Shown here in pieces: positions 206 through 45,695 of a DNA stretch of 64,000 bases. The position numbers and the translations under genes are program-made. This DNA comes from Armatimonadota bacterium (lineage in GTDB: Bacteria > Sysuimicrobiota > Sysuimicrobiia > Sysuimicrobiales > Kaftiobacteriaceae). Each line of letters begins with the position of its first letter. Within the stretch, counting starts at the first letter, position 1. The notes under the pieces are model-generated. The model worked only from the letters and a program-made list of their open reading frames with translations, ran no database searches and was not told the DNA's origin. Location of the stretch: NCBI GenBank assembly GCA_037440005.1, contig JBBIUY010000004.1, positions 23,673-87,672 on the forward strand, read 5' to 3'.

Positions 206-547
206 TCACCGGGCCGGCTTGGAGGTCGGATCGCCCGGCAGGGTGCCGGCCCGGATCTCCGCGATGTTGGTGAAGCCGTCTTTGTCGGAGTCGAGTTTCT
301 CGATGGCCCGGAACGCCGCCTCCGCCCGGGTCGTCCCCTGCCGGGCCAGGTCGGCCCCGTAGGGGTTGACCTGTTTGGTGGGCGGCGTGGTGGTGTGGCA
401 GATCAGGCATCCGGCCTTGCCCAGGGCCGTGTCCTCCCGGGGCGAGTACAGGTTCCGGAAGGTGGTCAGGTCCGACGGCAGGGCCGCGGCCGTCGCGGTC
501 AGCAGGAGAAGTCCCGCTGCGACCGCCAGCGCGCTCGTGAGCCTCAT
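206..547 (-). CDS. Mono-heme c-type cytochrome (secreted)
   Basis: 113 aa. Signal peptide MRLTSALAVAAGLLLLTATAAA and a single CLICH (CXXCH) heme-binding motif. ATGA start/stop overlap with the upstream gene links it to the ccm operon. Confidence 0.8.
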   Translation of the reverse strand: MRLTSALAVAAGLLLLTATAAALPSDLTTFRNLYSPREDTALGKAGCLICHTTTPPTKQVNPYGADLARQGTTRAEAAFRAIEKLDSDKDGFTNIAEIRAGTLPGDPTSKPAR

Positions 548-1725
548 GGCGTCTCCTCCTCTCGGTGTGGTGTCCGGGGGTCCGCGACCGGCGCCGCCCC
601 GCCCCGGCGGGTCAGCTCCTCCACCAGCAGGGCGCGCCGGCGGCGGTAGTCCTCCGGCGGCACCTCTCCGGCCTCGTAGCGGTCGTCCAGGTCCGCCACC
701 AGCAGGATGAGGTCGTCTCGGGTCAGGAGGGGCTCCCGCCCGCCGGTGGGGAGGGCGGAGGAGCGGCGCCGCAGGAACGGGTAGACCAGGGCGCCGACCA
801 GGATGCCGACAAAGGCCGCCAGGACCAACCGGTGAGGAGCGCCGGCGGAGACGGGCAGGCCGGTCGCCGCGATGGCCACCTGCGCGCCCGGCTTCATCCC
901 CTCGCCCGAGAAGCGCAGGTACGCTCCCTCGTCGGTCTGCACCGGCGGCTGGGCGGCCAGGGGCGTGACCTCGAAGCGGGCCGCCGCGTGGCCAAAGACC
1001 TCGACCCGGTCGGTGGGCAGGTCCAGCGTCCGCAGGATCCGGGCGCTGCGACCCGAGGCCGGGACCAGGTAGCTGTAGCCGATCTGCCGCATCCCGGGCT
1101 TGACGTCCATGGTGTCCACCAGGACGCCGCCGGCCACCGAGGCGCAGCACTCCATCAGGCCCTCCAGGAACTGGACCCGGGTGGCTCCGGGCGGCAGGGT
1201 CAACCGCAGAGTCTCCCTCCTGCCGTCGGGACGCGGGGTGGTCCCGACGAACGTGCGGTCGGTGGTGTTGGTGACGACGAGCAGTTCCGCCACCTGCACG
1301 CCCCCGGCGGCGGGCTCGACGATGATGTGATGGACGTCCACCCGCAGCACCGCCGGGTCGGTGGTGGGCTCGTAGACCCGCAGGGTCACCTGTTTGCGGG
1401 TTTCGCCGGCGCGGAAGGCGAGGGGTTCGCTGTCGTAGTCCCCGCCCCGGTACTTGACGTTGACCACGTAGGTCCGGTCGGCCGCGGCGGGAACCGTGAA
1501 GGAGAACAGGCCGGCGGCGTCGGTGGTGGTCTGGAGGCCGTCCACCTGGGCGGTGCCGGCATAGGCGGTCAGCGTCACCGGCTGGCCGGCCACAGGCCGG
1601 CGACCGCCCGTGAGGTTGACCACGGTGCCGGTGATGGTTCCCACCGCCGGAGCCTGTTCGGCGGCCGCGGCGGCCGGCCAGGCTGCCCCGATCACCAAAA
1701 CGGCGACGATCGCCCAGATCCTCAC
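544..1725 (-). CDS. Secreted membrane-anchored protein with CarboxypepD_reg-like beta-sandwich domain (unknown function, in ccm operon)
   Basis: 393 aa. Signal peptide MRIWAIVAVLVIGAAWPAAAAA; motif TITGTVVNLTGG...TDAAGLFSF typical of the carboxypeptidase-regulatory fold. C-terminal TM helix LVLAAFVGILVGALVYPFL followed by a charged cytoplasmic tail. 4-nt overlaps with both neighbouring genes. Confidence 0.55.
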   Translation of the reverse strand: MRIWAIVAVLVIGAAWPAAAAAEQAPAVGTITGTVVNLTGGRRPVAGQPVTLTAYAGTAQVDGLQTTTDAAGLFSFTVPAAADRTYVVNVKYRGGDYDSEPLAFRAGETRKQVTLRVYEPTTDPAVLRVDVHHIIVEPAAGGVQVAELLVVTNTTDRTFVGTTPRPDGRRETLRLTLPPGATRVQFLEGLMECCASVAGGVLVDTMDVKPGMRQIGYSYLVPASGRSARILRTLDLPTDRVEVFGHAAARFEVTPLAAQPPVQTDEGAYLRFSGEGMKPGAQVAIAATGLPVSAGAPHRLVLAAFVGILVGALVYPFLRRRSSALPTGGREPLLTRDDLILLVADLDDRYEAGEVPPEDYRRRRALLVEELTRRGGAAPVADPRTPHREEETP

Positions 1726-2132
1726 GGCGCGCCTTCCTCCATCGCCGGACGGCCGCAGGACGGGCAGAACCGGGCTCCCGGCGGACGCCGCTGGCCGCAG
1801 GCCGGGCAGCGCCGCCTGGCCCTCGCCGCGCGGATTTCCTGCTCGAGGGCGGTCTCCGCCTCCGGCGCGGGGCGGGACCGCGGGTGCAGGGCTTCCACCG
1901 CCCGGGCCTCATAGCGGGCCCGCAGCCGCGCGTAGTCGTCCGGGGAGAGCTTGCCCGTGGCGAAGTCGAACTCCAGTTCGCGCAGGGCGCTGAAGGCGGC
2001 CGCCTTGGCCCGCGCCGCCTCCTGCGCGGGATCCGCGCGCTCGCGGGCCGCCGGGGCCGGGGGCCGCAGCAGCGGCCACAGGATCAGCCCGGCCACGGCG
2101 GCGACCAGCGCCAGCTCGGCCAGCAGGATCAT
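1722..2132 (-). CDS. Small membrane protein with C-terminal zinc-ribbon (unknown function, in ccm operon)
   Basis: 136 aa. N-terminal TM MILLAELALVAAVAGLILWPLL, a coiled-coil-like middle and a CPACG...CPSCG double CxxC motif. Start lies 4 nt after the ccmH stop and the gene overlaps the downstream gene by 4 nt. Confidence 0.5.
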   Translation of the reverse strand: MILLAELALVAAVAGLILWPLLRPPAPAARERADPAQEAARAKAAAFSALRELEFDFATGKLSPDDYARLRARYEARAVEALHPRSRPAPEAETALEQEIRAARARRRCPACGQRRPPGARFCPSCGRPAMEEGAP

Positions 2133-2136
2133 GCCC

Positions 2137-2582
2137 TCAGTCCTCCCACTGCTCCAGTTCGCGCTCCAGCCACGCCCGTTGCCCGGGCGTCAGGGCGGGC
2201 GGGAGATCGGCGGAGGGCCGCTCGGACCGCCGCGACCACAGCGCGGCCAGGGCCGTCACCGCCGCGGCGCCGGCGACCAGGGCTGCGTAGGGCCCCCACC
2301 AGGCCACCAGGTTGAACCCCCGGCGCGGGGGAGCGGACAGCACCGCCTCCCCGTACGCGTCCACCAGGGCCGCCCGGATCTCGGCGTCGGTCCGGCCCTC
2401 GTTTTGCAGGCGGCCGATGGCGGCCAGCATCCGGTCCCGCGGTCCGCAGACGGGGTGGGTGCAGGTGGCCAGGGTGAGCCCGCACCCGCACTGACAGATG
2501 AACTGGTCGGCCAGGCCGCCGCCCGCGCGGGCGCCCGCGGGCAGCACCAGAAGCCCCAGCAGTGCCGCCAGCACCGCCGCCC

Positions 2583-2586
<4 letters not shown>
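2137..2586 (-). CDS. ccmH: Cytochrome c-type biogenesis protein CcmH/CycL-like
   Basis: 149 aa. Signal peptide, Cys cluster FICQCGCGLTLATCTHPVCG in the periplasmic domain, C-terminal TM segment. ATGA overlap with ccmF. Position immediately after ccmF is typical for ccmH. Confidence 0.6.
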
Positions 2587-4556
<1,970 letters not shown>

Positions 4557-4567
4557 GGGGATCCTCC

Positions 4568-4966
4568 TCAGCCTCCCGGCGCGGCCGCTTCAAACTTGGA
4601 CGGGCACTTGGCGAACAGCCGCTCGGCCACAAAGCGGGCGCCGTCGAAGCGACCCTCCACCACCACCTCCGCGCCGGGCTTGAAGGTGTCGGGCACCACC
4701 CCGCGGTAGGCGACCGCCACCTGCCGGGCGCCGTCGGTGACCCGGAACTCCAGCCGGCCGGCCGCCGGGTCCCAGGTCACGCTGCCCGGGGCCACGGTGC
4801 CGCCCAGGCGGATGGCGGCGCCGCCGATGGTCCCGGCGCGGTCCAGCAGCTCGCCCACGGTCATGTAGTAGGCCATGCTGCTGCGGGCTCCGGTGAAGGC
4901 GAGGTAGCCCCCCGCCGCCACGAAGACCGCCACAGCCAGCACAAACCTGCGGGTGGCGCGCCTCAT
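4568..4966 (-). CDS. ccmE: Heme chaperone CcmE, variant with Cys in place of the heme-binding His
   Basis: 132 aa. N-terminal TM anchor and OB-fold region (TVAPGSVTWDPAAGRLEFRVTDG...VVVEGRF). C-terminal motif LFAKCPSKFE aligns to canonical LAKHDENY. Start chosen at MRRATRRF (ATG 4966..4964), an ATGA overlap with ccmD. Confidence 0.8.
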   Translation of the reverse strand: MRRATRRFVLAVAVFVAAGGYLAFTGARSSMAYYMTVGELLDRAGTIGGAAIRLGGTVAPGSVTWDPAAGRLEFRVTDGARQVAVAYRGVVPDTFKPGAEVVVEGRFDGARFVAERLFAKCPSKFEAAAPGG

Positions 4967-5094
4967 CGCCGGTCCTCCTCTCCCGGCAGCCGCGCCTGCA
5001 GCGCCCGGCCCAGCCGGTGCAGGTACAGCACGTAGGCGAACAGACCACCCCACACGATGGCGTATCCCGCAAACATCGCCTCCAGGGGCGTCAT
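4963..5094 (-). CDS. ccmD: Heme exporter protein CcmD (small membrane protein)
   Basis: 43 aa, MTPLEAMFAGYAIVWGGLFAYVLYLHRLGRALQ..., a single TM helix. ATGA overlaps with both ccmC upstream and ccmE downstream. Confidence 0.55.
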   Translation of the reverse strand: MTPLEAMFAGYAIVWGGLFAYVLYLHRLGRALQARLPGEEDRR

Positions 5095-5840
5095 CCTGCC
5101 ACCTCCCCGGCTCCGGCGCGCACCCCCGACCGGCCCGCCCGCGCGGTCAGCCGGTCGGCCACCACCATCTGCTCCCGGCGCAGGCTGACCAGGATCACGT
5201 AGAGGATCGTGAAGGCGACCACGTTCACCACCAGGGCGTGGAGCATAGCCGGGTGCAGTCCCGATCCTACGCCCTCCGCCCCCACCACCACCGGCAGCGG
5301 GTGCAGCGACCGCCACCACAGCACCGAGAGGTAGATGAGGGGGATGTCCAGGAAGCCCACAATGCCCAGGACGGCGGCGAAGCGGGACGGCTGGGTCCCC
5401 GTCCCCCCATAGGCCCGCACCATCAGCGACGCCACGTAGATGAACCACAGCAGGAAGGTGGTGGTCAGGCGCGGATCCCAGCTCCACCACGTCCCCCAGG
5501 CGTACCGGCCCCACACCGACCCGCTGGCGATGGCCAGGGTGGTGAACACCACGCCCACCTCGGTGCTGGCGTGGGCGGTCAGGTCCCAGGCGCGCCGGCG
5601 GGTCCCCAGGTAGCCCACGCTGGCCGCGCAGACGACGGCAAAGGCCAGAAAGCCCACCCACGCCGCGGGAACGTGCACGTAGAAGATCCGCTGGGCCGCC
5701 CCCATGGTGCGTTCCTCGGGAGCGTACAGCAGGGCCATGTACAGGCCCGCCAGGAGCAGCGCGCTTCCCGCGGCGATCGCCGCCGCGCGCCAGTCCGCCC
5801 GGGCGGGCCTGGCCAACTCTCGGTGGCTGTCCGGCGGCAT
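5091..5840 (-). CDS. ccmC: Heme exporter protein CcmC
   Basis: 249 aa with the Trp-rich WWD motif AWGTWWSWDPRLTTT and 6 TM helices. Confidence 0.9.
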   Translation of the reverse strand: MPPDSHRELARPARADWRAAAIAAGSALLLAGLYMALLYAPEERTMGAAQRIFYVHVPAAWVGFLAFAVVCAASVGYLGTRRRAWDLTAHASTEVGVVFTTLAIASGSVWGRYAWGTWWSWDPRLTTTFLLWFIYVASLMVRAYGGTGTQPSRFAAVLGIVGFLDIPLIYLSVLWWRSLHPLPVVVGAEGVGSGLHPAMLHALVVNVVAFTILYVILVSLRREQMVVADRLTARAGRSGVRAGAGEVAG

Positions 5841-5841
5841 C

Positions 5842-6519
5842 TCACTCCTCCAGCACGTATTCGAACACCACAGACCCCACGACGGCGATCACCACGTCGA
5901 AGGCCGCCAGGATGCGGAGTCCCGGCAGGATGGCCGCCAGCGGGCGTCCGGCCAGGAGTTGGGCGGTGGCGCCGGCGGCGCTGAGGAGCACCGGGGCCGC
6001 CACGGGCAGCAGCAGAACGGGCAGCAGCACTTCCCGCATGCGCGTGTGCACCGACATGGCCGAGAACAGCGTGCCGGATGCGACCAACCCCGCGCTGCCC
6101 AGGACCAGCACCACCGCCAGGGGCCCGGCGGCCCGCCCCGGGGACACGCCGCCCAAGACGGCCAGGGCCGGGACCACCAGCGCCTCCACCGCCAGCAGGA
6201 CCAGCAGGGTGCTGGCGGCCTTGGCCACGTAGATCAGGGCCGGGTCGAACGGGAACAGGCGCAGGGCCTCCAGGCACCGCTCCTCCCGTTCCAGCGCGAA
6301 GGTCCGGGACAGCCCCAGGAGGCTGGCGAAGATCAGGGTCACCCACAGCATCCCCGGCGCCACCGCGGCGGCCTGGCCGGGGGCGGGAGAAAAGGCGAAC
6401 GTGAAGACCACGGTGACCAGCAGCGCAAACACCCCCATCGCCGACAGCATCTCCCGGGTCCGCAGTTCCAGGACCAGGTCCTTGCCCACCAGCAGCCCCA
6501 CGGCCCGCAGGGCGCTCAT
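5842..6519 (-). CDS. ccmB: Heme exporter ABC permease CcmB
   Basis: 225 aa polytopic membrane protein. Start at MSALRAVG (ATG 6519..6517) overlaps the ccmA stop in an ATGA arrangement. Confidence 0.8.
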   Translation of the reverse strand: MSALRAVGLLVGKDLVLELRTREMLSAMGVFALLVTVVFTFAFSPAPGQAAAVAPGMLWVTLIFASLLGLSRTFALEREERCLEALRLFPFDPALIYVAKAASTLLVLLAVEALVVPALAVLGGVSPGRAAGPLAVVLVLGSAGLVASGTLFSAMSVHTRMREVLLPVLLLPVAAPVLLSAAGATAQLLAGRPLAAILPGLRILAAFDVVIAVVGSVVFEYVLEE

Positions 6520-7259
6520 CGGTGGGCCCCCACCAGATCGGCGTACAGCCGCTCGGCGGCGCCCGGGTCGGGGAACCCGTTGAGCCCCTGGTAGGCCACC
6601 GCGCCGTCCACCAGGATCACCACCCGGTCGGCCAGGGCCAGGCCCTGCTCGATGCTGTGGGTGGTCAGGACCAGCGTGCGGCTTCCCCGCATCCGTCCCA
6701 GCAGGGCGGTCAGCAAGGCGGCGGCCGAGCGGTCCAGGCCCACGAAGGGCTCGTCCAGCAGCAGCAGGGGCGGGTCGTGCACCAGCGCCCGGGCGATGCT
6801 CAGCCGCCTGACCATGCCGTGGCTGAAGGTGCGGACCAGATCGTGGCGGCGCTCCCACAACCCCACCGCCTCCAGCAGCACCTCGGCCCGCCTGTCCGGC
6901 GTGTCCACCCCAAAGCCGCGCGCGGCGAAGACCAGGTTTTCCATCGCCGTCAGCCCCGCGTACAGGTAGCTGTGGTGGGAGACGACGCCGAGGCGCCGGC
7001 GCAGGGACGGGTCCTGCCAGGGATCCCGGCCAAACAGGCGCACCCGGCCGGCGGTGGGGCGCATGAGGGCGGCCAGGATCTTCACCAGGGTGGTCTTGCC
7101 GGCGCCGTTGGGGCCGAAGATCACCACCGCCTCGCCGTCGGGGACGTCGACGGTCACCCCCCGCAGCGCCTGCACGGGGCCAAAGGCCTTGACGAGATCA
7201 CGGGTCTGGATGGCGTGCACGCGCGCCCGCCGCCGTACGTTTCCTCTGTGCGCTTCCAC
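6516..7259 (-). CDS. ccmA: Heme exporter ABC ATPase CcmA
   Basis: Walker A GPNGAGKTT, ABC signature FSHGMVRRLSIA and Walker B LLLLDEP. The start may instead be the internal GTG at 7211 (VHAIQTRDL). Confidence 0.85.
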   Translation of the reverse strand: MEAHRGNVRRRARVHAIQTRDLVKAFGPVQALRGVTVDVPDGEAVVIFGPNGAGKTTLVKILAALMRPTAGRVRLFGRDPWQDPSLRRRLGVVSHHSYLYAGLTAMENLVFAARGFGVDTPDRRAEVLLEAVGLWERRHDLVRTFSHGMVRRLSIARALVHDPPLLLLDEPFVGLDRSAAALLTALLGRMRGSRTLVLTTHSIEQGLALADRVVILVDGAVAYQGLNGFPDPGAAERLYADLVGAHR

Positions 7260-7450: not shown

Positions 7451-9143
7451 GTGGACCGTGTTCGGGGTGTTCCCGTGCGCATCCGTCGGCGCACCTTCCT
7501 GACCCCCTCCGCGGCCGCGGCGGGCGCGGTGGCCGGCGCCCACCTGGTTCCGCGCCGGCTCACCGCCTTGCTGGCCCGGTCGTCCGGAGCGCCGGCGGGA
7601 CAACCGGCGGACGAGTGGGTTCCCACCACCTGCTGGATCGGCAAGCAGGACTGCGGGATCCTGGCCCGGCGGATCAACGGCCGCGTGGTCGAACTGGAGG
7701 GGCACCCCGGGAACCCGCTCAACCGCGGCACCCTCTGCCCCAAGGGCGTGGCCCAGATCATCGCGCTGTACGACCCTCACCGGGTGAAGGCGCCGCTGAT
7801 CCGGACCAACGAGAAAGGCGTGCCGGGGACATGGCGCCAGGCCTCCTGGGACGAGGCCCTGGACCTGGTGGCCCGGCGGATCCGGGAGGCGCGGGCGAAG
7901 GACCCCCGGCTGGTGGTCTGGCAGAAGGGCCGCAGCAAGGCCAAGGCCTTCTACGATGAGGCGTTCGTCAAGGCCTCGGGCGCCACGAAGCTGCACCACG
8001 GCGCGTTCTGCTCCGACGCCGGCTACCGTGCCAGCGAGTACACCGTGGGGATCTCCTGCGTTCTGCACCCCGACTTCCGCCACACCCGCTACCTGCTGGC
8101 GTGGGGGTGGAACGGCACCAACGCGGGCGGGAACATGTTGTGCTGGATCACCTGGCCCCAGCAGATGGCCGCCGCCCGGGAGCGGGGCATGAAGATCGTG
8201 GTCATCGACCCGCGCCTGCGGGGGATGGGGCCGTTCGCCGACGAGTGGCTGCCCATCCGCCCCGGCACCGACCTGGCGCTGGCCCTCGCCCTGTCTCACG
8301 AACTCCTGCGCCAGGGCGCCGTGGACCGGGAGTACTTGGCCCGCCACACCAACGCCCCCTTTCTGGTGGGGCCCGACGGATTCTTCGTGCGCCTCGGCGG
8401 GCAGGAGCAGATCTGGGACCGCCGCAGCGGCCGGCCCCGCCCCGCCGACGCCCCCGACGCCGACCCGGCCCTGGAGGGCGAGTACATCGTCGGGGGGAGG
8501 TTCGGGCGCGGCCGGTGTTCGCGGTGTTCGCCGAGCACGTGGCCCGCTACAGCCCCGAGTGGGCTGCCGGGGTCTGCGGCGTCCCGGCGGAGGCCATCCG
8601 GCGGGTGGCCCGGGAGCTGGGAGAAGAGGCCCGCATCGGCAGCACCATCGTCCTGGACGGGGTGACCCTGCCGTACCGTCCCGTGGCCATCATGGCCTAC
8701 CACATGGCCCAGCAGGAGCTGGGGTTCCAGGCGGTGCGGGCCATGATCACCGTGATGATGCTGCTGGGAGCGGTCGGGGCCGTGGGCGGGCAGCGGTTCG
8801 ACGTGGGCGGGTGGACGATTCACGAGAACTTTCACCTGCTCCTGGCCTTTTACCTGTTGCTGCGCCAGTTCCTCGCCGGGCGCAGCCGCATCGCGGTGCC
8901 CGTGGCGGCCGGGGTCCTGGTGAACGTCGCCGCGGTGGGCAAACGCATCCTGATCGTGGTTCCCTCCCAGACCCACGGGGCGATGCTGCCCTATCCGCCC
9001 GGGTGTACGCCCCCACCTGGGTGGAGTACAGTAGCGTGGGAGGGCTGGTGGCTCTGGGCACGCTGCTGTACGTCCTGTTCGCCAAGGTGTTTCCCCTCAT
9101 CGACCTGCCGGAAGACGTGTCGGAGGGAGCTCGACGACGGTGA
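7451..9143 (+). pseudogene. Decayed molybdopterin-oxidoreductase-like (MopB/ActB1-like) gene fused by internal deletion to the 3' end of an NrfD/ActC-like gene, with homopolymer frameshifts
   Basis: Frame 2 (7451 to ~8505) carries TAT motif RRRTFLT and an N-terminal CWIGKQDCG...LCPKG domain. A -1 shift in a GGGGGG run (~8505) moves into frame 1 with MopB motifs YSPEWAAGVCGVPAEAIRRVARELGE and LLGAVGAVGG. That frame runs directly into NrfD-type C-terminal helices: IAVPVAAGVLVNVAAVGKRILIVVP matches the intact paralogue's ATAASVLVNVGAWWKRYVIIVP. A second shift in a CCCGGG run (~8990) moves into frame 0, where YAPTWVEYSS...LFAKVFPLIDLPE matches the intact gene's C-terminus YTPTWVEWSI...LFSKLFPIVSLWE. 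No intact ORF encodes either protein. Confidence 0.6.
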
Positions 9144-9376
9144 GGACGCTCATCACCCGGACGCTGGTGGTGGTGGGCCTGGCCACGGCCACGGTGAGTT
9201 TCGCCCTGGCCCTGCCGCTGCGTCTGCCGGGCGCGGCGGCGGGGATCCCGGCGGTGGCGCGCCCGATCCCGTACCTGCCGGCGGCGTTCATCGCGGGGCT
9301 CATGCTGGTGTTCCTGGCGGCGGTGGCCTACGAACTGCTAACCGACCGCGACACCACCGAGCCGTGGCGGCCGTAG
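9140..9376 (+). CDS. Small 2-TM membrane protein; truncated paralogue of the 173-aa subunit encoded at 28088..28609
   Basis: 78 aa with a GTG start in a GTGA overlap with the preceding remnant. Its signal-like N-terminus and C-terminal segment PIPYLPAAFIAGLMLVFLAAVAYELL resemble MRWPGSAALLAALALTASAA... and PYPVPPLALLGVLVGAIWATYGYIVFLL of the 28088 product. The periplasmic domain between them is missing. Confidence 0.4.
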   Translation: MRTLITRTLVVVGLATATVSFALALPLRLPGAAAGIPAVARPIPYLPAAFIAGLMLVFLAAVAYELLTDRDTTEPWRP

Positions 9377-9386
9377 GGAGGACCCC

Positions 9387-10024
9387 ATGGGCCTGCGGGG
9401 TGTGGCCTGCGCGCGGGCCGAGGCGTACCAGGCGCTGGCGCAGGTCCTCCACTACCCCGACGGCGGGCGTCTGACCACCTTCCCCCGCACGGCCGCGCGC
9501 CTGCGGCGGCGGATCGATGCCCTCGCGGGCCTGGCGCAGTTCGATCCCGCCCGGCGCCTGGTGAGCCTGCTGGAGGCTGTGGCCCGGCAGGACCCCCGGA
9601 CCGTCCAGGCGACGTACGTCCGGGTGTTCGGGGTGGACGGAGCGGGCGGACGGCCCCCTGCGAGTCGTACTACCGGTCGCGCTCTCCCGCCGACGTTCCC
9701 CTGTTGATGGCCGCCCTGGAGCGCGTCTACGCCGCCGCCGGGCTGGCGGTCGATGCCGCAGGGGGTCTGCCGCCGGACCACCTCGTCGTCCAGATGGAGT
9801 TCATGGCCGTGCTGTGCGCCCGGGAGGGGGCGGCGTGGCGATCACCCCGCGGGGCGGCGGACGAGCTCGTCGCAGAGCAGCGGTTTCTCCGCTCCCACTG
9901 GCTGTCTGGCTGCCGGCGCTGGGCTCGGACGTCGCCCGGTGGGACCCGGTGGGCGCGTATGCCGGGATCGTCGGGTGTGCGGCCGACCTGGTGCGGCACG
10001 ACCTGGCGTTCCTCGCCGCCCTGA
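9387..10024 (+). pseudogene. TorD/DmsD-family redox-enzyme maturation chaperone, frameshifted
   Basis: Frame 0 (9387 to ~9650) shifts at a CCCCC run (~9655) into frame 2, where PCESYY...PPDHLVVQMEFMAVL carries the TorD-family hallmark motifs. The C-terminal part (WLPALGSDVARWDPVGAYAGIVGCAADLVRHDLAFLAALMRAS) lies in yet another frame near 9900. No ORF longer than 107 aa covers the family. Confidence 0.5.
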
Positions 10025-11588: not shown

Positions 11589-11909
11589 GTGAGCGGACGC
11601 GATCTGGCGGTGGTGCTGCTGGTGGTCCTGGGCGCCCTGATCCTGCTGCCCGCCCTGGGGATGGCGGTGGGGGGATGCGGCGGGTGGATGGGGCCGGGCA
11701 TGATGGGTCGCTGGGGCTGGGGCCCGTGGGGAGGAGGGTGGGGACTCGTGGCGATGCTGCTGGCGCTGGCGGGGATCGTGCTGGTGGTCCTGGCCCTGGG
11801 GCGCCGGGAGGCCAGGGGGGACGAGGCGCTACAGATCCTGCGGCGCCGCCTGGCCAGCGGGGAGATCACCCCGGAGCAGTTCGAGGAACTCCGCAAGACG
11901 CTGCAGTAG
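11589..11909 (+). CDS. SHOCT-domain membrane protein with Met/Gly/Trp-rich loop
   Basis: 106 aa. Two TM helices flank GGCGGWMGPGMMGRWGWGPWGGGWG. The C-terminal ILRRRLASGEITPEQFEELRKTL is a SHOCT motif. GTG start with a GAGGAGGGA RBS. Confidence 0.6.
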   Translation: MSGRDLAVVLLVVLGALILLPALGMAVGGCGGWMGPGMMGRWGWGPWGGGWGLVAMLLALAGIVLVVLALGRREARGDEALQILRRRLASGEITPEQFEELRKTLQ

Positions 11910-15353: not shown

Positions 15354-16235
15354 CTACCGGGACGTCTCCTGGCGGTAGCCGCTGAGAGCGGCGAGCTCCT
15401 GCAGGGACAGCACGCCTTCATAGCGGCGGCCGCCGATGTCCCACGTCGGGTAGGCGCGGACCCCGGCCGCCGCGCACACCTCGGGCTGTCCGATGGGGGA
15501 TCGGGGATCGCACTCGATGTACGGCAGCAGCGCCGCGGCGTCCCCGAACAGGGCCTTCTGGTCCGCGCAGTGGGGGCACCAGTATGCCCCGTAGAACTTC
15601 GCCCCGGTGGCGGACAGGTGGCGGGCCAGGCCGGCCGCAAACGACGCGTCCGGCGGGGTCGGCGCGGACAGCCGGTAGCCCGAGATCAGGAACACCACAG
15701 CCGCAGCGGCGGCGGCCGCCGTCCACCTCCAGGTTCCCGCCGCGGGCCGGCGGGGCCGTCGGACGATCAGGAGTCCCAGGAGGGCCACGGTCAGCAGCGC
15801 GGAGACGACGCACAAGCTGCAGGTGACCTGCAGGAGCACCCGCTGGACCACGGTGAAGACCGCCGAGGCGGCGACGCCGGCGCCGGCCACGGGCACCGCC
15901 ACCGCCCAGCGGCGGTCCTCCGGGGCCGGGCGCAACCCCAGGGCCAGCAGGCTCCCGTAGTACCCCAGGCCCAACAGGGCGACCGGGATCCCGAAGACCG
16001 CCGCATAGCGGCTGGACTGCACCACGTCGCACCCGCCCCCCGCCGGGCAGTACACCGGGACGTGGGCGGCGCGCGCGTACAGCAGGTAGGCGCTGAGGAC
16101 GACGCCGAGCCCGCTGAGGATCGCCAGCCGGAGATCCGGCGACCTCACTGCGGCGCGGCTGCGGCGGTCCGGTCGGCGGGGAGTCGGCCTTGTCATCCTC
16201 CGCCCATCATACCCCGCCGCCACCGCTCCGTCCAC
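15354..16235 (-). CDS. Vitamin K epoxide reductase (VKOR)-family protein fused to a thioredoxin-like domain (DsbB-analogue disulfide-bond formation)
   Basis: VKOR TM core with YCPAGGGCD and active-site TCSLCV. C-terminal Trx-like domain with YGAYWCPHCADQK. The start is uncertain: GTG at 16235 or the internal ATG (MTRPT). Confidence 0.8.
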   Translation of the reverse strand: MDGAVAAGYDGRRMTRPTPRRPDRRSRAAVRSPDLRLAILSGLGVVLSAYLLYARAAHVPVYCPAGGGCDVVQSSRYAAVFGIPVALLGLGYYGSLLALGLRPAPEDRRWAVAVPVAGAGVAASAVFTVVQRVLLQVTCSLCVVSALLTVALLGLLIVRRPRRPAAGTWRWTAAAAAAAVVFLISGYRLSAPTPPDASFAAGLARHLSATGAKFYGAYWCPHCADQKALFGDAAALLPYIECDPRSPIGQPEVCAAAGVRAYPTWDIGGRRYEGVLSLQELAALSGYRQETSR

Positions 16236-16262
16236 CGGACGGCCGCTGGATGGCCACCGGGA

Positions 16263-20207: not shown

Positions 20208-20213
20208 GGGCCG

Positions 20214-20939
20214 ATGACGCGGCACGCGGGATGGGTGGTCCTGCTGTGGGTGGTCCTGACCGCCCTGGGCCTGGTGGGGGCCGCGCGGGTGGACCTGCTG
20301 CCGGTGGCCGCCGCCCGGGAGGCCCGCATTATCGACGACGCCTTCCGGTTCCTGATGCTGCTGGCCGTGCCGGTGTTCACCTTCGTGCTGGCCGTCCTGC
20401 TGTACGCCGTCGCCGCCTTCCGCGCCCGCCGGGAACCTCCGGAGGACGGGCCCCCGCTGTGGGGGCGGTCGGCGGTGCCGTGGGTCTGGCTGGCGGTCAC
20501 CAGCGCCCTGGCCGTGTACGTGATCGTCAATCCGGGACTGCGGGGTCTGGCCGAGCTGCGGTCCGACCGACACGCGGACCTGGTGGTGCGGGTGGAGGGG
20601 TCCCGGTGGGTGTGGCGGTTCGTCTATCCCGAGTCGGGCGTCACCAGCCGCGAGCTGGTCCTGCCGGTGGGCCGGCGGGTGCGGTTCGACGTGACCGGGG
20701 TGGACGTGGTGCACTCCTTCTGGGTCCCGGCGTTCCGGGTGAAGGTGGACGCGGTGCCCGGAATGACGACCTCCGTGTACGTGACGCCCACCCGGACCGG
20801 AGATCAGGCCGGTGATGTGAATTTCCGGGTCCAGTGCGCCGAGCTGTGCGGCCTGGGCCACCACCTGATGGCCGCGCCGGTGCGGGTGGTGGATCCCGGG
20901 GCGTTCGAGGCGTGGGTGGCCGGGGGCCGGTCGCCCTAG
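20214..20939 (+). CDS. coxB: Cytochrome c oxidase subunit II (CuA, no cytochrome c domain)
   Basis: 241 aa with two TM helices. CuA ligands VHSFWVP ... QCAELCGLGHHLM (H...C-x-E-x-C-x3-H-x2-M). Confidence 0.9.
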   Translation: MTRHAGWVVLLWVVLTALGLVGAARVDLLPVAAAREARIIDDAFRFLMLLAVPVFTFVLAVLLYAVAAFRARREPPEDGPPLWGRSAVPWVWLAVTSALAVYVIVNPGLRGLAELRSDRHADLVVRVEGSRWVWRFVYPESGVTSRELVLPVGRRVRFDVTGVDVVHSFWVPAFRVKVDAVPGMTTSVYVTPTRTGDQAGDVNFRVQCAELCGLGHHLMAAPVRVVDPGAFEAWVAGGRSP

Positions 20940-20981
20940 CCGGAGGCGGCGCGGCCGGGGGGAGACGTTTGCCGATCCGGC

Positions 20982-22829
20982 GTGGCGAGAGGTGAGCGGT
21001 CCGTGCGAGCGATCGTGCGCGGGATAGGGTGGGGGGCGGCCGGCTTCGCGCTGGGCGCCCTGGCGGCGACGGCGGCCGGGTGGGCGGCGGGGCGTCCGCC
21101 GCGGGCCGAGGTCCTGGTGACCCTCGGGTACGTCGCCGGGCTGACCGGCTGGCTGCTGGGCGTCGGCCTGTGGGACGCCTGGGCCCGGGGGTGGTTCGGG
21201 CTCCCCGTCCGCCACGAGCCCGATCACACGTGGCGGCGCTACTTCCGGTTCACCACCGACCACAAGGTCATCGGCGTGCAGTACCTGGTGACCTTCGTGG
21301 TGCTGTTCGTTCTGGCCGGGGCGATGGCGCTGGTCATGCGGGTGGAGTTGGCGGCCCCGGGGCCGACGGTGATGAGCGCCGGCGCCTACACCCACCTGAT
21401 GAGCCTGCACGGCATCATCATGATCGCCGTGGCGGTGGCCACCATCCTGGGGGGGTTCGGCAACTACCTGGTGCCGCTCATGATCGGGGCCGAGGACATG
21501 GCCTTCCCGCGCCTGAACGCCCTCAGCTACTGGCTGGTGCCGCCGGTGGCCGTCCTGCTGGTGGCCACGCCGTTGGCCGGGGGGTTCGACACCGGGTGGA
21601 CCGCCTACCCGCCCCTCAGCGAGGTCAACGCCAGCGGCCAGGTCCTGTTCAACCTGGCGGTGATCACCTTCGGGCTGTCCTCCATCCTGGGCGGGATCAA
21701 CTTCCTGGCCACCATCGTGGGCCTGCGGGCGCCCGGGATGACCTGGCGGCGGCTGCCCATCTTCGTGTGGGCGGTGTTCGCGGCGTCGCTGATCAGCGTC
21801 ACCGCCACCCAGTACCTGGCGGCGGGGCTGCTGATGGTCCTGCTGGACCGGGAGGCGGGCATGGCGTTCTTCGCCGCGGCCCGGGGCGGCATGCCCCTGC
21901 TGTACCAGCACATCTTCTGGTTCTACTCGCACCCGGCGGTGTACATCATGATCCTGCCCGCCTTCGGGCTGGCCCTGGAGGTTCTGACCCACTTCTCCCG
22001 CAAACCCCTGTACGCCTACCCCTGGGTGGTGGGGGGATTTCTGGGGATCGTGGGGCTCAGCTTCGTGGTGTGGGCGCACCACCTGTACACCAGCGGCATG
22101 CGGGAGTCGCTGCTGGGGCCGTTCATGGCCACCACCGAGCTCATCTCCATCCCCACCGGGCTGGTGTTCCTGGCCGCCCTGGGGACGCTGTGGATGGGCC
22201 GGCTGTGGCTGCGGACGCCGATGCTGTTCGCCCTGGGGTTTCTGTTCAACTTCCTCATCGGGGGCGTGACCGGCATCTTCAACGCCGACGTGCCCACGGA
22301 CCTGCACCTGCAGGACACCTACTTCGTGGTCGGGCACTTCCACTACACCATCGTGGGCGGGATGATCTTCGCCCTGTTCGCCGGCCTGTACTACTGGTTC
22401 CCCAAGATCACCGGGCGGATGTACGACGAGCGGCTGGGCCGGGTGCACTTCTGGTGGATGTTCCTGGCCTACAACGCCACCTTCCTGCCCATGTTCTGGG
22501 CGGGGGTGCACGGGATGAACCGGCGCATCGCCGACTACCCGGCCCCCCTGGCCGGGGTGAACCTGTGGATCTCGGCGATGGCCGTCGTGCTGGGGGCCAG
22601 CGTCGTGGTGTTCCTGTGGAACGCGGTGGCCAGCTGGATCCGCGGGCCGCAGGCCGCGGCCAACCCCTGGGGCGCCCGCACCCTGGAGTGGCAGGTGCCC
22701 TCGCCCCCGCCCGAGGGCAACTTCCCCCACCCGCCCCGGGTGGTGGGCGACCCCTATGCCTACGGGGTGCCGGGAGCCGCGCACGCCGTGGTGGCCGCCG
22801 CCGGCGGGGCCGGGGAGGGAGGGGGGTAA
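20982..22829 (+). CDS. coxA: Cytochrome c oxidase subunit I (A-type heme-copper oxidase)
   Basis: 615 aa with GFGNYLVPLMIGAEDMAFPRLN and conserved His ligands. It has a ~70-aa N-terminal extension, so the start codon is uncertain (GTG 20982). Confidence 0.9.
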   Translation: MARGERSVRAIVRGIGWGAAGFALGALAATAAGWAAGRPPRAEVLVTLGYVAGLTGWLLGVGLWDAWARGWFGLPVRHEPDHTWRRYFRFTTDHKVIGVQYLVTFVVLFVLAGAMALVMRVELAAPGPTVMSAGAYTHLMSLHGIIMIAVAVATILGGFGNYLVPLMIGAEDMAFPRLNALSYWLVPPVAVLLVATPLAGGFDTGWTAYPPLSEVNASGQVLFNLAVITFGLSSILGGINFLATIVGLRAPGMTWRRLPIFVWAVFAASLISVTATQYLAAGLLMVLLDREAGMAFFAAARGGMPLLYQHIFWFYSHPAVYIMILPAFGLALEVLTHFSRKPLYAYPWVVGGFLGIVGLSFVVWAHHLYTSGMRESLLGPFMATTELISIPTGLVFLAALGTLWMGRLWLRTPMLFALGFLFNFLIGGVTGIFNADVPTDLHLQDTYFVVGHFHYTIVGGMIFALFAGLYYWFPKITGRMYDERLGRVHFWWMFLAYNATFLPMFWAGVHGMNRRIADYPAPLAGVNLWISAMAVVLGASVVVFLWNAVASWIRGPQAAANPWGARTLEWQVPSPPPEGNFPHPPRVVGDPYAYGVPGAAHAVVAAAGGAGEGGG

Positions 22830-24216: not shown

Positions 24217-24677
24217 TGGGTATGGACGGCGTCCGGTCGGCGGTGGCGGGGCTCACCGTGGGGGTCTCGCTGGTCGCCCTGGGGATCGGCGGGCTGGCCC
24301 TGCTGGCCTCCGCCCCGGCGGCACCGCCGCCAGAGCGCGTGGACCTGGAGCTGCTCATCACCGGCCGGGGCGCCATCGGGGGGCCGGCCGAGAGCCACCT
24401 GTTCGACCCCCAGATGCTGGTGGTGCGCCGGGGGGACACCGTGCGGCTGCGGGTGATCAACCTGTCCCACTTCCGTCACGGCCTGGAGTTCGCCGGCCTG
24501 GGCGTGCGCACCGCCGCGCTGCCCGGCGGGGCGGCGGACGTGGTGGAGTTTGTGGCGGCACGGCCGGGGATTTTCGAGTACCGGTGCTATTTGCCCCACG
24601 ATCCGGCCACGGGCACCTGCGCCCCCGACCACGACCGGATGGTGGGGCACCTGGTGGTGGTGGAGGGACGGCGGTGA
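24216..24677 (+). CDS. Membrane-anchored cupredoxin B (paralogue of A)
   Basis: TGATG overlap with cupredoxin A. TM GLTVGVSLVALGIGGLALL. FRHGLEF ... YRCYLPHDPATGTCAPDHDRMVGHLVV. Confidence 0.55.
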   Translation: MGMDGVRSAVAGLTVGVSLVALGIGGLALLASAPAAPPPERVDLELLITGRGAIGGPAESHLFDPQMLVVRRGDTVRLRVINLSHFRHGLEFAGLGVRTAALPGGAADVVEFVAARPGIFEYRCYLPHDPATGTCAPDHDRMVGHLVVVEGRR

Positions 24678-24720
24678 GAGGACGCGGGAGATTTACGAGC
24701 CCCTCGGGGAGGTGAGGAGG

Positions 24721-25185
24721 ATGCGGGGACGGACGGCGCTGGTTGTGGGCGTGGTGGCGGTCCTGCTGGCCGTCGGGCCGGCGGCGGGCGCGCCCAAGGC
24801 CCAGAAGGTCACGGTGGTGCTCAACGAGATGAGCTTCACGCCCGCCCGGGTGACGGTGACGGCCGGCACGCCGGTGCAGCTGACCCTGGTCAACCGGGGC
24901 AAGCAAAAGCACGAGTTCATGGTCTACACGCCGCCCCGGACGGCGCTGGCCGGAGACGAGCTCGAAGAGTGGGCCAAGGAGAACTCGTACTTCAAGGGCC
25001 TCGAGGTAACCGTGGAGACCGCCGGCGTGGAGATCGGGGCGGAGGCCCTGATGGAGGTCGAGGTGGGGCCGGGCCGGTCCGCCGAACTGACGTTCACGCC
25101 GCGGCGGACGGGGACGTTCGAGATGGGCTGCCACCTGGAAGGCCATTACGAGGCGGGGATGAAGGGGACGTTTGTGGTCCGTTGA
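24721..25185 (+). CDS. Secreted azurin/auracyanin-type blue copper protein (cupredoxin C)
   Basis: Signal peptide MRGRTALVVGVVAVLLAVGPAAGA. Ligand set KHEFMV (His) ... GCHLEGHYEAGMKGTFVV (C-x4-H-x4-M), with the same ligand spacing as azurin. Confidence 0.7.
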   Translation: MRGRTALVVGVVAVLLAVGPAAGAPKAQKVTVVLNEMSFTPARVTVTAGTPVQLTLVNRGKQKHEFMVYTPPRTALAGDELEEWAKENSYFKGLEVTVETAGVEIGAEALMEVEVGPGRSAELTFTPRRTGTFEMGCHLEGHYEAGMKGTFVVR

Positions 25186-25201
25186 CGCCGGGAGGACACC
25201 C

Positions 25202-25645
25202 ATGAACGGTCGCGGGGCGCTGCTGTTCGCCGGGAGCTTTGCGGTGGTGCTCACCGCCCTGGCCGGGTACGTGGTGGTGCGGTCCTACGCGCCTCCCGCC
25301 TCGGCGGCGCCTCCCGTCGTGCCCGAGGTCCGGCAGTTCGACCTGTGGCTGCACGTCCTGGAGGCCGCCGACGCCTCGGTGCGCCACTGGGTCCCGCCCG
25401 TGCTGGTGGTGAACGCGGGCGACACCGTCATCCTGCGGGTGCACAACGGCGACCCGGACACCGCCCACGGCTTTGCCCTGGGCGCTTTCAACCTGACGGT
25501 CCCCACCATCCCGCCCGGGCAGACGGCGACGGTGCGCTTTGTGGCGCGGCGGCCCGGGATCTACCACTACGGGTGCGCCGCCGCCGGGTGCGCGCCGGAC
25601 CACGCCGGGCAGACCGGCCAGCTGGTGGTGCTGGGAGGGCGGTAG
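25202..25645 (+). CDS. Membrane-anchored cupredoxin D (paralogue of A/B, Gln in axial position)
   Basis: TM LLFAGSFAVVLTALAGYVVV. AHGFALGAF ... YHYGCAAAGCAPDHAGQTGQLVV (C-x4-C-x3-H-x2-Q). GGGAGGA RBS. Confidence 0.55.
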   Translation: MNGRGALLFAGSFAVVLTALAGYVVVRSYAPPASAAPPVVPEVRQFDLWLHVLEAADASVRHWVPPVLVVNAGDTVILRVHNGDPDTAHGFALGAFNLTVPTIPPGQTATVRFVARRPGIYHYGCAAAGCAPDHAGQTGQLVVLGGR

Positions 25646-43985: not shown

Positions 43986-44039
43986 CGGCGCGGCCTCACG
44001 CGGCCGCCCGCGAGACGCGGAGGAGGACGGGATCCGTCC

Positions 44040-45695
44040 GTGTGGGTGGACGCCATCGTCGACGACATCCTGCGCACCCGACCGCAGGAGGCCTACGTGG
44101 TCAACGATGCCAAGAGCCCGTCGGGCCCCATCCACGTGGGGTCGCTGCGGGGCGTGATCCTGCACGACTGCATCGCCCGCGGGCTGCGGGACCGGGGGCG
44201 CGCCGTCCGCTTCCTGTACGGGTTCGACGACTACGATCCCCTGGACGCGGTCCCCGCCGGCGCGCCGGCGGAGTTCGCCCGGTACCTGGGCCGGCCCCTG
44301 GCCGACGTCCCGTCCCCGGCCGGAGACGGCCAGAGCTTCGCCCGTCACTTCGGCCGGGCGTTTGCGGACGTGTTCACCCGCCTGGGGGCGCGGCCGGAGG
44401 TGTACTGGACCAGCGACTGGTACCGGGCCGGCACCTTCAACGACGCCATCCGCATCGCCCTGGACCGGGCCGACGAGGTCATTCAGATCGACCGGGAGAT
44501 CAGCGGGAGCACCCGGGCCGAACGCCACCCGGTGCAGGTCCTGTGCGAGCGCTGCGGCCGCATCGGCACCACCGTGGTGACCGGGTGGGACGGGCGGGAG
44601 GTGTCCTACGAGTGCCGGCCCGACAAGGTGGCCTGGGCCCAGGGGTGCGGCCACCGGGGACGGCGCTCGCCCTTCGACGGGGGCAGCAAGCTGCAGTACA
44701 AGGTGGAGTGGGCCGCCAAGTGGTGGATCCTGCAGGTGTCGGTGGAGGGGGCGGGCAAAGACCACATGACCCGCGGAGGCAGCCACGATGTGGCCAGCGC
44801 GCTGTGCGCGCGCGTCTTCGGCTGCCGGCCGCCGTACCCCATCCCCTACGAGTGGTTCCTGGCCGGGGGCCGCAAGATGAGCACCAGCAAGGGGGTGGGG
44901 ATGCCCGCCCAGGAGCTGGCGCAGATCCTGCGCCCGGAACTGGCGCGCTTTTTGATGGTGCGGCCCCACTACCGCCAGCAGATCAACTTCGACCCCGGAG
45001 GTGAGACGATCCCTCACCTCTACGACGAGTACGACCGGGCGGCGGCCGCCTACTACCGGGAGGTGACGCCCCGCACCCCGGCGGAGGCGGACCTGCTGCG
45101 CGACCACGCCCGGACCTACTATTACGCCCAGCCGGACGCCCCGCCGCCGCCGTGCTTCCGGATGCGCTTTGCCAAGATCGCGTACCTGATGCAGATGCCC
45201 ACCGTGGACCTGCGGGCCGCCGCCGGGGCCGACAAGGGCGCGCCGCTGACCGACGCCGACCGGGAGGAGCTGCAGAGGCGGGTGGAGGACGCGCGGCGGT
45301 GGCTGCAGACCTACGCCCCCGACCACTACCGTTTCCAGGTCCAGCCCGTCCTGCCGGCTGTGGACCTGGACGTGTCCCAGCGGGAGTTTCTGGGCCGTCT
45401 GGCGGAGGTGGTCGCGGGGCGGCCGGCGTGGTCGGGCGACGACCTCCACGCCCGCATCCACGCCCTCAAGCAGGAGCTGGGCCTGCCGGCCCCGCGGGCG
45501 TTTTCCGCCATCTACCTGGCATTCCTGGGCAAACCCTCCGGCCCCCAGGCCGGGTGGTTCCTGGCGTCCCTGGACCGGGAGTTCGTCCTGCGCAGGCTCC
45601 GGGAGGCGGCCGAACGTCCTTCCGGGAAGACCGAAGCGCCGGCGGCCGACCCCCCGCCCGGGCGCGCCGGAGGCTCGCCCGCTCCACCGTCATGA
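44040..45695 (+). CDS. lysK: Class I lysyl-tRNA synthetase (LysK-type)
   Basis: HIGH-region PSGPIHVGSLRG and KMSKS-region KMSTSKG, plus a zinc-knuckle CERCG; 551 aa; GTG start. Confidence 0.8.
   Translation: MWVDAIVDDILRTRPQEAYVVNDAKSPSGPIHVGSLRGVILHDCIARGLRDRGRAVRFLYGFDDYDPLDAVPAGAPAEFARYLGRPLADVPSPAGDGQSFARHFGRAFADVFTRLGARPEVYWTSDWYRAGTFNDAIRIALDRADEVIQIDREISGSTRAERHPVQVLCERCGRIGTTVVTGWDGREVSYECRPDKVAWAQGCGHRGRRSPFDGGSKLQYKVEWAAKWWILQVSVEGAGKDHMTRGGSHDVASALCARVFGCRPPYPIPYEWFLAGGRKMSTSKGVGMPAQELAQILRPELARFLMVRPHYRQQINFDPGGETIPHLYDEYDRAAAAYYREVTPRTPAEADLLRDHARTYYYAQPDAPPPPCFRMRFAKIAYLMQMPTVDLRAAAGADKGAPLTDADREELQRRVEDARRWLQTYAPDHYRFQVQPVLPAVDLDVSQREFLGRLAEVVAGRPAWSGDDLHARIHALKQELGLPAPRAFSAIYLAFLGKPSGPQAGWFLASLDREFVLRRLREAAERPSGKTEAPAADPPPGRAGGSPAPPS

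Follow-up and report, generated by a model that had tools for sequence, protein, structure and literature searches.

A Cys-type CcmE heme chaperone with phenylalanine in place of the CxxxY tyrosine in a ten-gene ccm operon

Introduction

[quoted passage not shown] Canonical CcmE carries an HxxxY motif (PMC9084895), and in E. coli holo-CcmE the tyrosine of this motif ligates the heme iron. The question is raised by a gene in a 64-kb window (the whole stretch of DNA that was analysed) for whose product a first-pass annotation had proposed this double replacement. The window has a G+C content of 72.7% and encodes, besides the ccm genes, cupredoxins, two-component regulators and the housekeeping proteins EF-G, DnaG and RpoD; because of these housekeeping genes it is regarded as chromosomal DNA.

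CcmE proteins that bind heme via Cys define System I* (Allen 2006; Goddard 2010), as described by Stevens et al. in 2011 (PMC3601427). Among 36 bacterial genomes with the variant CcmE, the motif was CPSKY in 25 and the Tyr was replaced by Phe in four; the carriers named there include chloroflexi, firmicutes and delta-proteobacteria. The four Phe-containing proteins resemble the one described here in being CxxxF-type and in coming from bacteria outside the delta-proteobacteria. They were reported as counts, with no analysis of CcmH motifs or neighbouring genes, at a time when the phylum Sysuimicrobiota (CSP1-3) was unknown. [quoted passage not shown] The replacement of Tyr by Phe, which the first-pass annotation had pointed out, was thus already in print. 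The same is true of a CcmH beside a Cys-type CcmE: its presence was read correctly, and only the surprise at it falls away. Both the Cys/Phe variant and its co-occurrence with CcmH are therefore largely known, and the finding is to that extent an ordinary one.

Several Cys-type proteins have been studied experimentally. According to the account of Goddard (2010) given in PMC3601427, the CcmE of Desulfovibrio desulfuricans forms a covalent bond with heme, and E. coli that carries its operon produces holocytochrome c. Gupta et al. showed in 2022 (PMC9084895) that both the heme staining of Methanosarcina acetivorans CcmE and the production of cytochrome c depend on its residue C120. It is also reported there that the H130C variant of E. 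coli CcmE binds heme and cannot pass it on; a Cys-type CcmE would accordingly depend on co-adapted partners. In vitro, D. vulgaris CcmE was found to bind ferric heme through C127 in a non-covalent manner (Aramini 2012, as cited in PMC3884852). Our literature search found no paper with an experimental test of a CxxxF-type CcmE, and a search on CcmE together with the phylum names gave nothing relevant.

The CcmE gene and its product

The ccmE open reading frame occupies positions 4568-4966 of the minus strand, from an ATG at 4966 to the stop codon at 4568, and encodes a predicted heme chaperone of 132 residues. It lies between ccmD and ccmF, its ATG overlapping the ccmD stop codon by 4 nt (ATGA) and the ccmF start following 12 nt downstream. 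The ATG at 4966 is preferred over a longer GTG-initiated reading because homologues are 130-137 residues long.

The product matches the Pfam CcmE domain (PF03100) with 97.6 bits against a cut-off of 24.6, over profile positions 1-98 of 99. An AF2 model built with 70 homologues as input has a mean pLDDT of 92.8 and predicts three parts: residues 3-29 form a membrane-anchor helix, residues 33-119 an OB-fold β-barrel and residues 120-132 a flexible tail (pLDDT about 70). The five top Foldseek matches of this model in the PDB are all CcmE structures (8ce8_E, 1lm0, 1sr3, 1j6q and 2kct). With the NCBIfam equivalog models for canonical CcmE, eight in all, the protein falls short of every cut-off (best score 93.5 against 126), in keeping with a divergent CcmE subtype. 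When E. coli CcmE was compared with all six frames of the whole window, only 4568-4966 was matched, and no second CcmE-like reading frame, including a His-type one, was found there. Comparison of the gene with its orthologues gave dN/dS values of 0.27-0.51, and an identical CcmE (P0001) is present in public data.

The Cys121/Phe125 motif

The C-terminus of CcmE reads ...ERLFAKCPSKFEAAAPGG, and the end of the protein, ...VAERLFAKCPSKFEAAAPGG, matches the earlier reading exactly. The residues Cys121-Pro-Ser-Lys-Phe125 are encoded at 4592-4606 (minus strand), with the Cys121 codon TGC at 4604-4606 and the Phe125 codon TTT at 4592-4594. In phmmer comparisons with PDB chains, FAKCP of the query (AKCP being residues 119-122) was aligned to LAKHD of E. 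coli (AKHD being 128-131, chain 8ce8_E), and KCP of the query was paired with KCP of D. vulgaris CcmE (2kct). These two alignments place Cys121 opposite His130 of E. coli CcmE, and Phe125, four residues further along (+4), opposite Tyr134 of HxxxY. This bears out the claim of the first-pass annotation that Cys and Phe replace the heme-binding His and Tyr. The annotation had also left room for a Cys out of register with His130, or for a canonical His a few residues away; Cys121 pairs with His130 and there is no His nearby.

A canonical His or Tyr displaced by a few positions from the motif was ruled out, since the full 132 residues contain no His at all and no Tyr after residue 97. The protein thus has neither the His at the His130 site and Tyr at +4 of His-type CcmE nor the +4 Tyr of CxxxY proteins of System I*, which mostly have CPSKY; it has CPSKF instead. 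In an alignment of 70 sequences, Cys121 is invariant, and Pro122, Ser123 and Lys124 are each at least 90% conserved. By alignment, by conservation and by a survey of the +4 residue (below) the protein groups with the Cys-type CcmEs of System I*. The product of 4568-4966 is confirmed as a Cys-type CcmE, the kind that characterises System I*, in which Phe stands in place of the CxxxY tyrosine.

The protein shares with E. coli CcmE (8ce8_E, 1sr3) a membrane-anchored OB-fold, a flexible C-terminal heme-binding tail and the position of its gene between ccmD and ccmF, but the two are only about 34% identical and differ at both motif residues. It is closer to the CPSKY proteins of D. desulfuricans and D. 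vulgaris, in which Cys likewise takes the place of His and the K-C-P-S-K core is identical; with D. vulgaris CcmE (2kct) it shares the OB-fold and 44% identity over 77 aligned columns, and ccmD, ccmC and ccmF are kept in both systems. Unlike in Desulfovibrio, the +4 residue is Phe rather than Tyr, and a CcmH-family gene and two further genes, X and Y, accompany ccmF. The archaeal CcmE of M. acetivorans (CxxxY) also has a Cys-type heme-binding residue, which is required in vivo (PMC9084895), but Tyr is reported to be universal in archaeal CcmE, and archaeal systems lack CcmD, CcmH and CcmI whereas ccmD and a CcmH-like gene are present here.

Distribution of Phe at the +4 position

The motif was tabulated in the 120 closest database homologues, where CPSKF occurs 93 times, CPTKY 21 times, CPSKY twice, and CPTRY and CPSRY once each. 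Because CPSKF is found in 93 of these 120 sequences, Phe125 is neither a one-off substitution nor a sequencing error. One homologue that is 61% identical to the query (P0088) has CPSKY.

A broader sample was obtained by an exhaustive HMMER search of representatives of 50%-identity clusters, from which the best 150 matches, nearly all Cys-type, were taken and 149 were aligned. The +4 residue is Tyr in 123 of the aligned representatives, Phe in 21 (22 with the query) and Met in three. The resulting Phe share of about 15% is probably an overestimate, because the matches were ordered by their similarity to a query that itself has Phe. Phe-containing sequences form several separate groups on a rough neighbour-joining tree, and at least 13 state changes are required at the +4 column, although the tree is weakly resolved (136 columns) and the count includes gap and odd states. 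In these samples CPSKF is lineage-wide, and Phe is a recurrent minority state among Cys-type CcmEs. In the three representatives with Met (CPSKM; P0254, P0230 and P0180), Met could be an alternative iron ligand. Almost none of the CxxxF and CxxxM cluster members carries a taxon name, the single one being Chloroflexota.

The ccm operon

The ccmE gene is the fifth of ten in a minus-strand operon (206-7259) with the order ccmA-B-C-D-E-F, a CcmH-like gene, X, Y and a small cytochrome c gene. Most of the joins are 4-nt start/stop overlaps. The first gene, ccmA (6516-7259), encodes an ABC ATPase (PF00005) that scores 122 bits with TIGR01189, just below the cut-off of 131.6. The start of ccmB (5842-6519; PF03379, 107.9 bits) overlaps the ccmA stop by 4 nt. 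The ccmC gene (5091-5840; PF01578) encodes a protein that, aligned to E. coli CcmC (7f02_C), keeps the WWD motif, WGTWWSWDPRL, and the flanking His residues (YVHVPAA and WWRSLH). The 43-residue product of ccmD (4963-5094) belongs to the alternative CcmD family (TIGR04391, 31.3 bits against a cut-off of 24). The ccmF gene (2583-4556) encodes a heme lyase subunit of 657 residues (PF01578 and PF16327) that matches Thermus thermophilus CcmF (6zmq) with 389 bits and has an identical WGGYWAWDPVEN motif. Both CcmC and CcmF therefore carry the WWD motifs and flanking His ligands that belong to System I*.

The last gene (206-547) encodes a small secreted c-type cytochrome of 113 residues with a single CLICH motif, and orthologues occupy the matching position in five Sysuimicrobiota loci (L002, L004, L005, L006 and L012). 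This cytochrome is likely a substrate of the Ccm system. Its mature part contains no further His and no Met as a potential sixth ligand. The protein has no Pfam match and includes a calcium-loop-like DSDKDGFTN motif.

The ccm operon contains no thioredoxin-like gene, and no CcmG/TlpA-like reductant gene was seen in the 64-kb window. The sole credible WCxxC thioredoxin-like match in the window is at 15357-16262 (minus strand), three others lying in short reading frames that are not gene-like. This gene encodes a VKOR-family protein with a C-terminal thioredoxin-like WCPHC, that is, a VKOR-thioredoxin fusion, and is likely part of a disulfide-forming system.

A CcmH-like protein that lacks CxxC, and the genes X and Y

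The CcmH-like gene (2137-2586, minus strand) encodes 149 residues with a signal peptide, a Cys-rich motif and a C-terminal membrane helix, and its product matches PF03918 with 48.7 bits against a cut-off of 25. The original 2006 description of System I* has CcmH absent, whereas this PF03918 protein is present here. A single-sequence phmmer search with the protein gave no match in the PDB; a profile of 13 homologues matched the CcmH structures 2kw0 and 2hl7 from E. coli and Pseudomonas (E = 4e-11 and 6e-11, respectively). In place of the canonical LRCxxC the protein has FICQCGC (sequence FICQCGCGLTLATCTHPVCG). The cysteines C31-Q-C33-G-C35, C42 and C47 are encoded at 2446-2496. The first Cys aligns to the first Cys of canonical CcmH, and the column of the second Cys is occupied by Gly with a Cys on both sides. 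The first-pass annotation had rightly recorded a CcmH-like gene and a heme-copper oxidase nearby, both of which are present in the window, but the missing CxxC in the CcmH-like product had escaped notice.

The loss of CxxC is shared by the relatives of this protein. Among the 120 nearest homologues, 71 have CxCxC, 48 have SP[YF]CPGxTLHDC, in which the first Cys is lost, and none has CxxC. A homologue from Ktedonobacterales has no Cys in the motif region. Every CxxC-less CcmH that could be placed in a locus adjoins a Cys-type CcmE.

Gene X (1722-2132, minus strand) encodes a small protein that combines one membrane helix and a conserved GKLSxxDY motif with a zinc ribbon (PF13240) at its C-terminus. 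It has weak similarity to the model of the CcmI N-terminal domain (TIGR03142), scoring 24.2 bits, below the cut-off of 29.3. Gene Y (544-1725, minus strand) encodes 393 residues, for which the model and the domains of homologues predict a signal peptide, CarboxypepD_reg-like β-sandwich domains, a membrane helix and a SHOCT-like cytoplasmic tail. In the model (pLDDT 86) the β-sandwich region spans residues 28-288 and the membrane helix residues 299-318, followed by cytoplasmic helices. Homologues of Y contain CarboxypepD_reg; one has SHOCT, one is fused to a zinc ribbon, and distant ones of 520-630 residues carry fused cytochrome c domains. When the Y model was used in a fold search, it matched only a generic arrangement of two β-sandwiches plus helix (OST subunit Ost1/ribophorin I, TM-score about 0.3), which gave no functional assignment. 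Our literature search found no paper linking ccmF or ccmH with carboxypeptidase-regulatory, zinc-ribbon or SHOCT domains. The SHOCT domain family of the Y tail recurs in the window at the C-terminus of a Gly/Trp-rich small membrane protein (11589-11909, plus strand) whose gene adjoins an OmpR-type two-component system.

Comparison of ccm loci

A scan of one genome per species gave 80 loci; its seeds were peptide patterns of the query, and the sample is therefore biased. The counts cover loci in which 3 kb or more of sequence follows ccmF. In the 24 CxxxF loci, which are mostly from MAGs labelled Sysuimicrobiota/'Armatimonadota', Actinomycetota and Ktedonobacterales, X and Y are always present, with Y directly after X in 24 of 24, and 15 have the CcmH-like gene. 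Among the 38 CxxxY loci, X, Y and the CcmH-like gene were each counted in two, and the other 36, which are of Desulfovibrionales type, have none of them next to ccmF. The two exceptions are from Gemmatimonadaceae (L014) and Bryobacteraceae (L069). A stricter re-run did not recover Y in L014, so that this locus has the CcmH-like gene and X and, less securely, Y; all three are present in L069, in L082 (also labelled Bryobacteraceae) and in L086 (same type). Counterparts of X lie at 10465-10863 in L082, 10462-10857 in L084 and 4882-5319 in L086. Since these CxxxY loci carry the module as well, Phe at +4 was rejected as a causal predictor of CcmH, X and Y. In all suitable loci sampled outside Desulfovibrio, which come from several phyla, the X-Y pair comes after ccmF or ccmH, and the comparison indicates that the CcmH-X-Y module goes with the non-Desulfovibrio Cys-type systems and not with Phe as such.

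The gene order differs between the groups. It is ccmABCDEFH-X-Y-cytochrome c in Sysuimicrobiota, ccmE-F-H-X-Y-A-B-C in loci of Ktedonobacterales, Actinomycetota and Bryobacteraceae type, ccmE-A-B-C-F-X-Y in other Actinomycetes and ccmE-F-A-B-C in Desulfovibrionaceae. The closest named genome is that of Candidatus Calidihabitans tengchongensis (Candidatus Sysuimicrobiota, formerly CSP1-3), which has the same operon, with 70% identity. One MAG (SMAG_U194) has two ccm loci, both with a CPSKF CcmE (L006, DATDEG010000175, and L008, DATDEG010000244) and only one with a CcmH-like gene; either a duplication of the system or a mixed bin could account for this.

The first-pass annotation had also held a Cys-type CcmE to be unexpected in an aerobe-like genome, which these loci do not support. 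Cys-type CcmE was found in MAGs labelled Actinomycetota, Chloroflexota, Acidobacteriota (Bryobacteraceae), Gemmatimonadaceae and Sysuimicrobiota. In addition, the ccm cluster of a JGI metagenome contig (L084) adjoins a caa3-type oxidase operon, and a Cys-type CcmE in aerobes is therefore not odd. The Sysuimicrobiota (CSP1-3) have been described as facultatively anaerobic with an ancestral coxABC (PMC11604079). The oxidase in the window is encoded at 20208-22829 (plus strand; subunits II and I), and subunit II carries the CuA motif CAELCGLGHHLM and is not fused to a cytochrome c domain.

Proposed function and alternative explanations

The explanation that we consider probable is that the gene encodes a functional Cys-type System I* CcmE in which Cys121 most likely forms a thioether to a heme vinyl and Phe125 is a near-neutral, lineage-wide replacement. 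The identity and fold of the protein, the equivalence of its motif residues, the integrity of the operon, the conservation and the earlier description of the variant are established; covalent attachment at Cys121 and the neutrality of Phe are here inferred from homologues. CcmABCD would present heme and load it onto CcmE, and the thiol of Cys121 in the flexible tail, in the place of His130, would add to a heme vinyl group and form a covalent thioether-type bond. Holo-CcmE would then dock on CcmF, together with the CcmH-like protein, and the heme would pass to apocytochromes with a CXXCH motif, among them the small cytochrome c of the operon, ultimately serving the CuA-type oxidase. Because Phe125 cannot ligate iron, the heme on CcmE would have no tyrosinate ligand and would be either five-coordinate or ligated by a partner protein.

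In favor of a functional CcmE, its partners are intact, the WWD motifs and flanking His residues are kept in the ccmC and ccmF products, and the operon is translationally coupled. The dN/dS values and the predominance of CPSKF in the nearest homologues point to selection. The alternation of Tyr, Phe and Met at +4 within the Cys-type family, together with the CPSKY of P0088, suggests that Phe may be neutral, and by analogy the D. desulfuricans and M. acetivorans experiments argue for Cys-type function. The non-covalent binding of heme by D. vulgaris CcmE in vitro, the inability of E. coli H130C CcmE to pass heme on and the NCBIfam scores below the cut-offs stand against this explanation, and a second maturation system may lie outside the 64 kb analysed. 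The first of these points underlies its main rival, in which Cys121 would be a non-covalent axial thiolate ligand, the Phe at +4 would leave the iron with no second protein ligand, and CcmE would act as a transient heme shuttle. That thioether bonds are hard to reverse (PMC3601427) also speaks for such a shuttle. However, the D. vulgaris experiment, as cited in PMC3884852, was done without CcmABCD, and Cys-dependent, SDS-stable heme staining has been reported in vivo for D. desulfuricans (as cited in PMC3601427) and for M. acetivorans (PMC9084895); we regard the non-covalent shuttle as unlikely.

It could also be that the change from Tyr to Phe is not neutral and is compensated by, or co-adapted with, the CxxC-less CcmH, X and Y, which would make this a mechanistically distinct System I subtype. 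The frequencies of X, Y and the CcmH-like gene in CxxxF and CxxxY loci would agree with such a dependence, as would the placement of X-Y, which comes immediately after ccmF or ccmH in each of three operon layouts. The association tracks phylogeny, however, the sampled CxxxY loci being nearly all Desulfovibrionaceae, and the loci were recruited with query-derived peptide patterns; moreover, the four CxxxY loci that carry the module (with Y weaker in L014) do so with a Tyr at +4. Compensation of this kind thus appears quite unlikely. An operon that is a decaying or non-functional remnant, with cytochromes c matured by another system elsewhere in the genome, is highly improbable. The view is limited to 64 kb of the genome, and a molybdoenzyme locus next to the operon (about 7.4-10.1 kb) appears to be truncated or to contain frameshifts, but all ten genes of the operon are intact and translationally coupled, their catalytic motifs are conserved, dN/dS is below 1, the same operon is conserved across the phylum, and the CuA-type oxidase in the window needs a cytochrome c donor.

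This CcmE adds a further uncultured phylum to the range of a known natural variant with Cys in place of His and Phe in place of Tyr. As a functional chaperone it would also confirm, in line with mutagenesis in E. coli, that nature can dispense with the tyrosine as iron ligand. More novel than ccmE itself are its neighbours, the CxxC-less CcmH and the X-Y pair that is conserved in the ccm operons of several phyla. We tentatively raise the possibility, which we hold to be doubtful, of an undescribed System I subtype that combines a Cys-type CcmE (CxxxF or CxxxY), a CxxC-less CcmH (CxCxC...C or SxxC...C) and the dedicated membrane proteins X and Y. As delimited here it would span MAGs labelled Sysuimicrobiota, Actinomycetota, Chloroflexota (Ktedonobacterales), Acidobacteriota (Bryobacteraceae) and Gemmatimonadaceae. 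If such a subtype exists, X and Y would take over the apocytochrome handling or thiol-redox roles of CcmI, CcmG and the CxxC of CcmH. The CxxC-less CcmH and X/Y are testable candidates for a part in the release of heme from a thioether-linked chaperone and for clarifying the true role of CcmH.

Other features of the window

Subunit I of the oxidase has an N-terminal extension of about 110 residues, and two cupredoxin-domain proteins and a 4Fe-4S protein are encoded downstream of the oxidase (24457-25645, plus strand). In the molybdoenzyme locus (7451-10024, plus strand) the molybdopterin oxidoreductase gene (7451-8665) covers the first half of the Pfam Molybdopterin domain only, with the reading continuing in other frames, and a NarJ/TorD-like chaperone appears to be split (9387-9707 and 9704-10024); these features point to frameshifts, to decay of the locus or to errors in the assembly. 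The lysyl-tRNA synthetase (43986-45695, plus strand) is a class I enzyme (PF01921), the less common type in bacteria.
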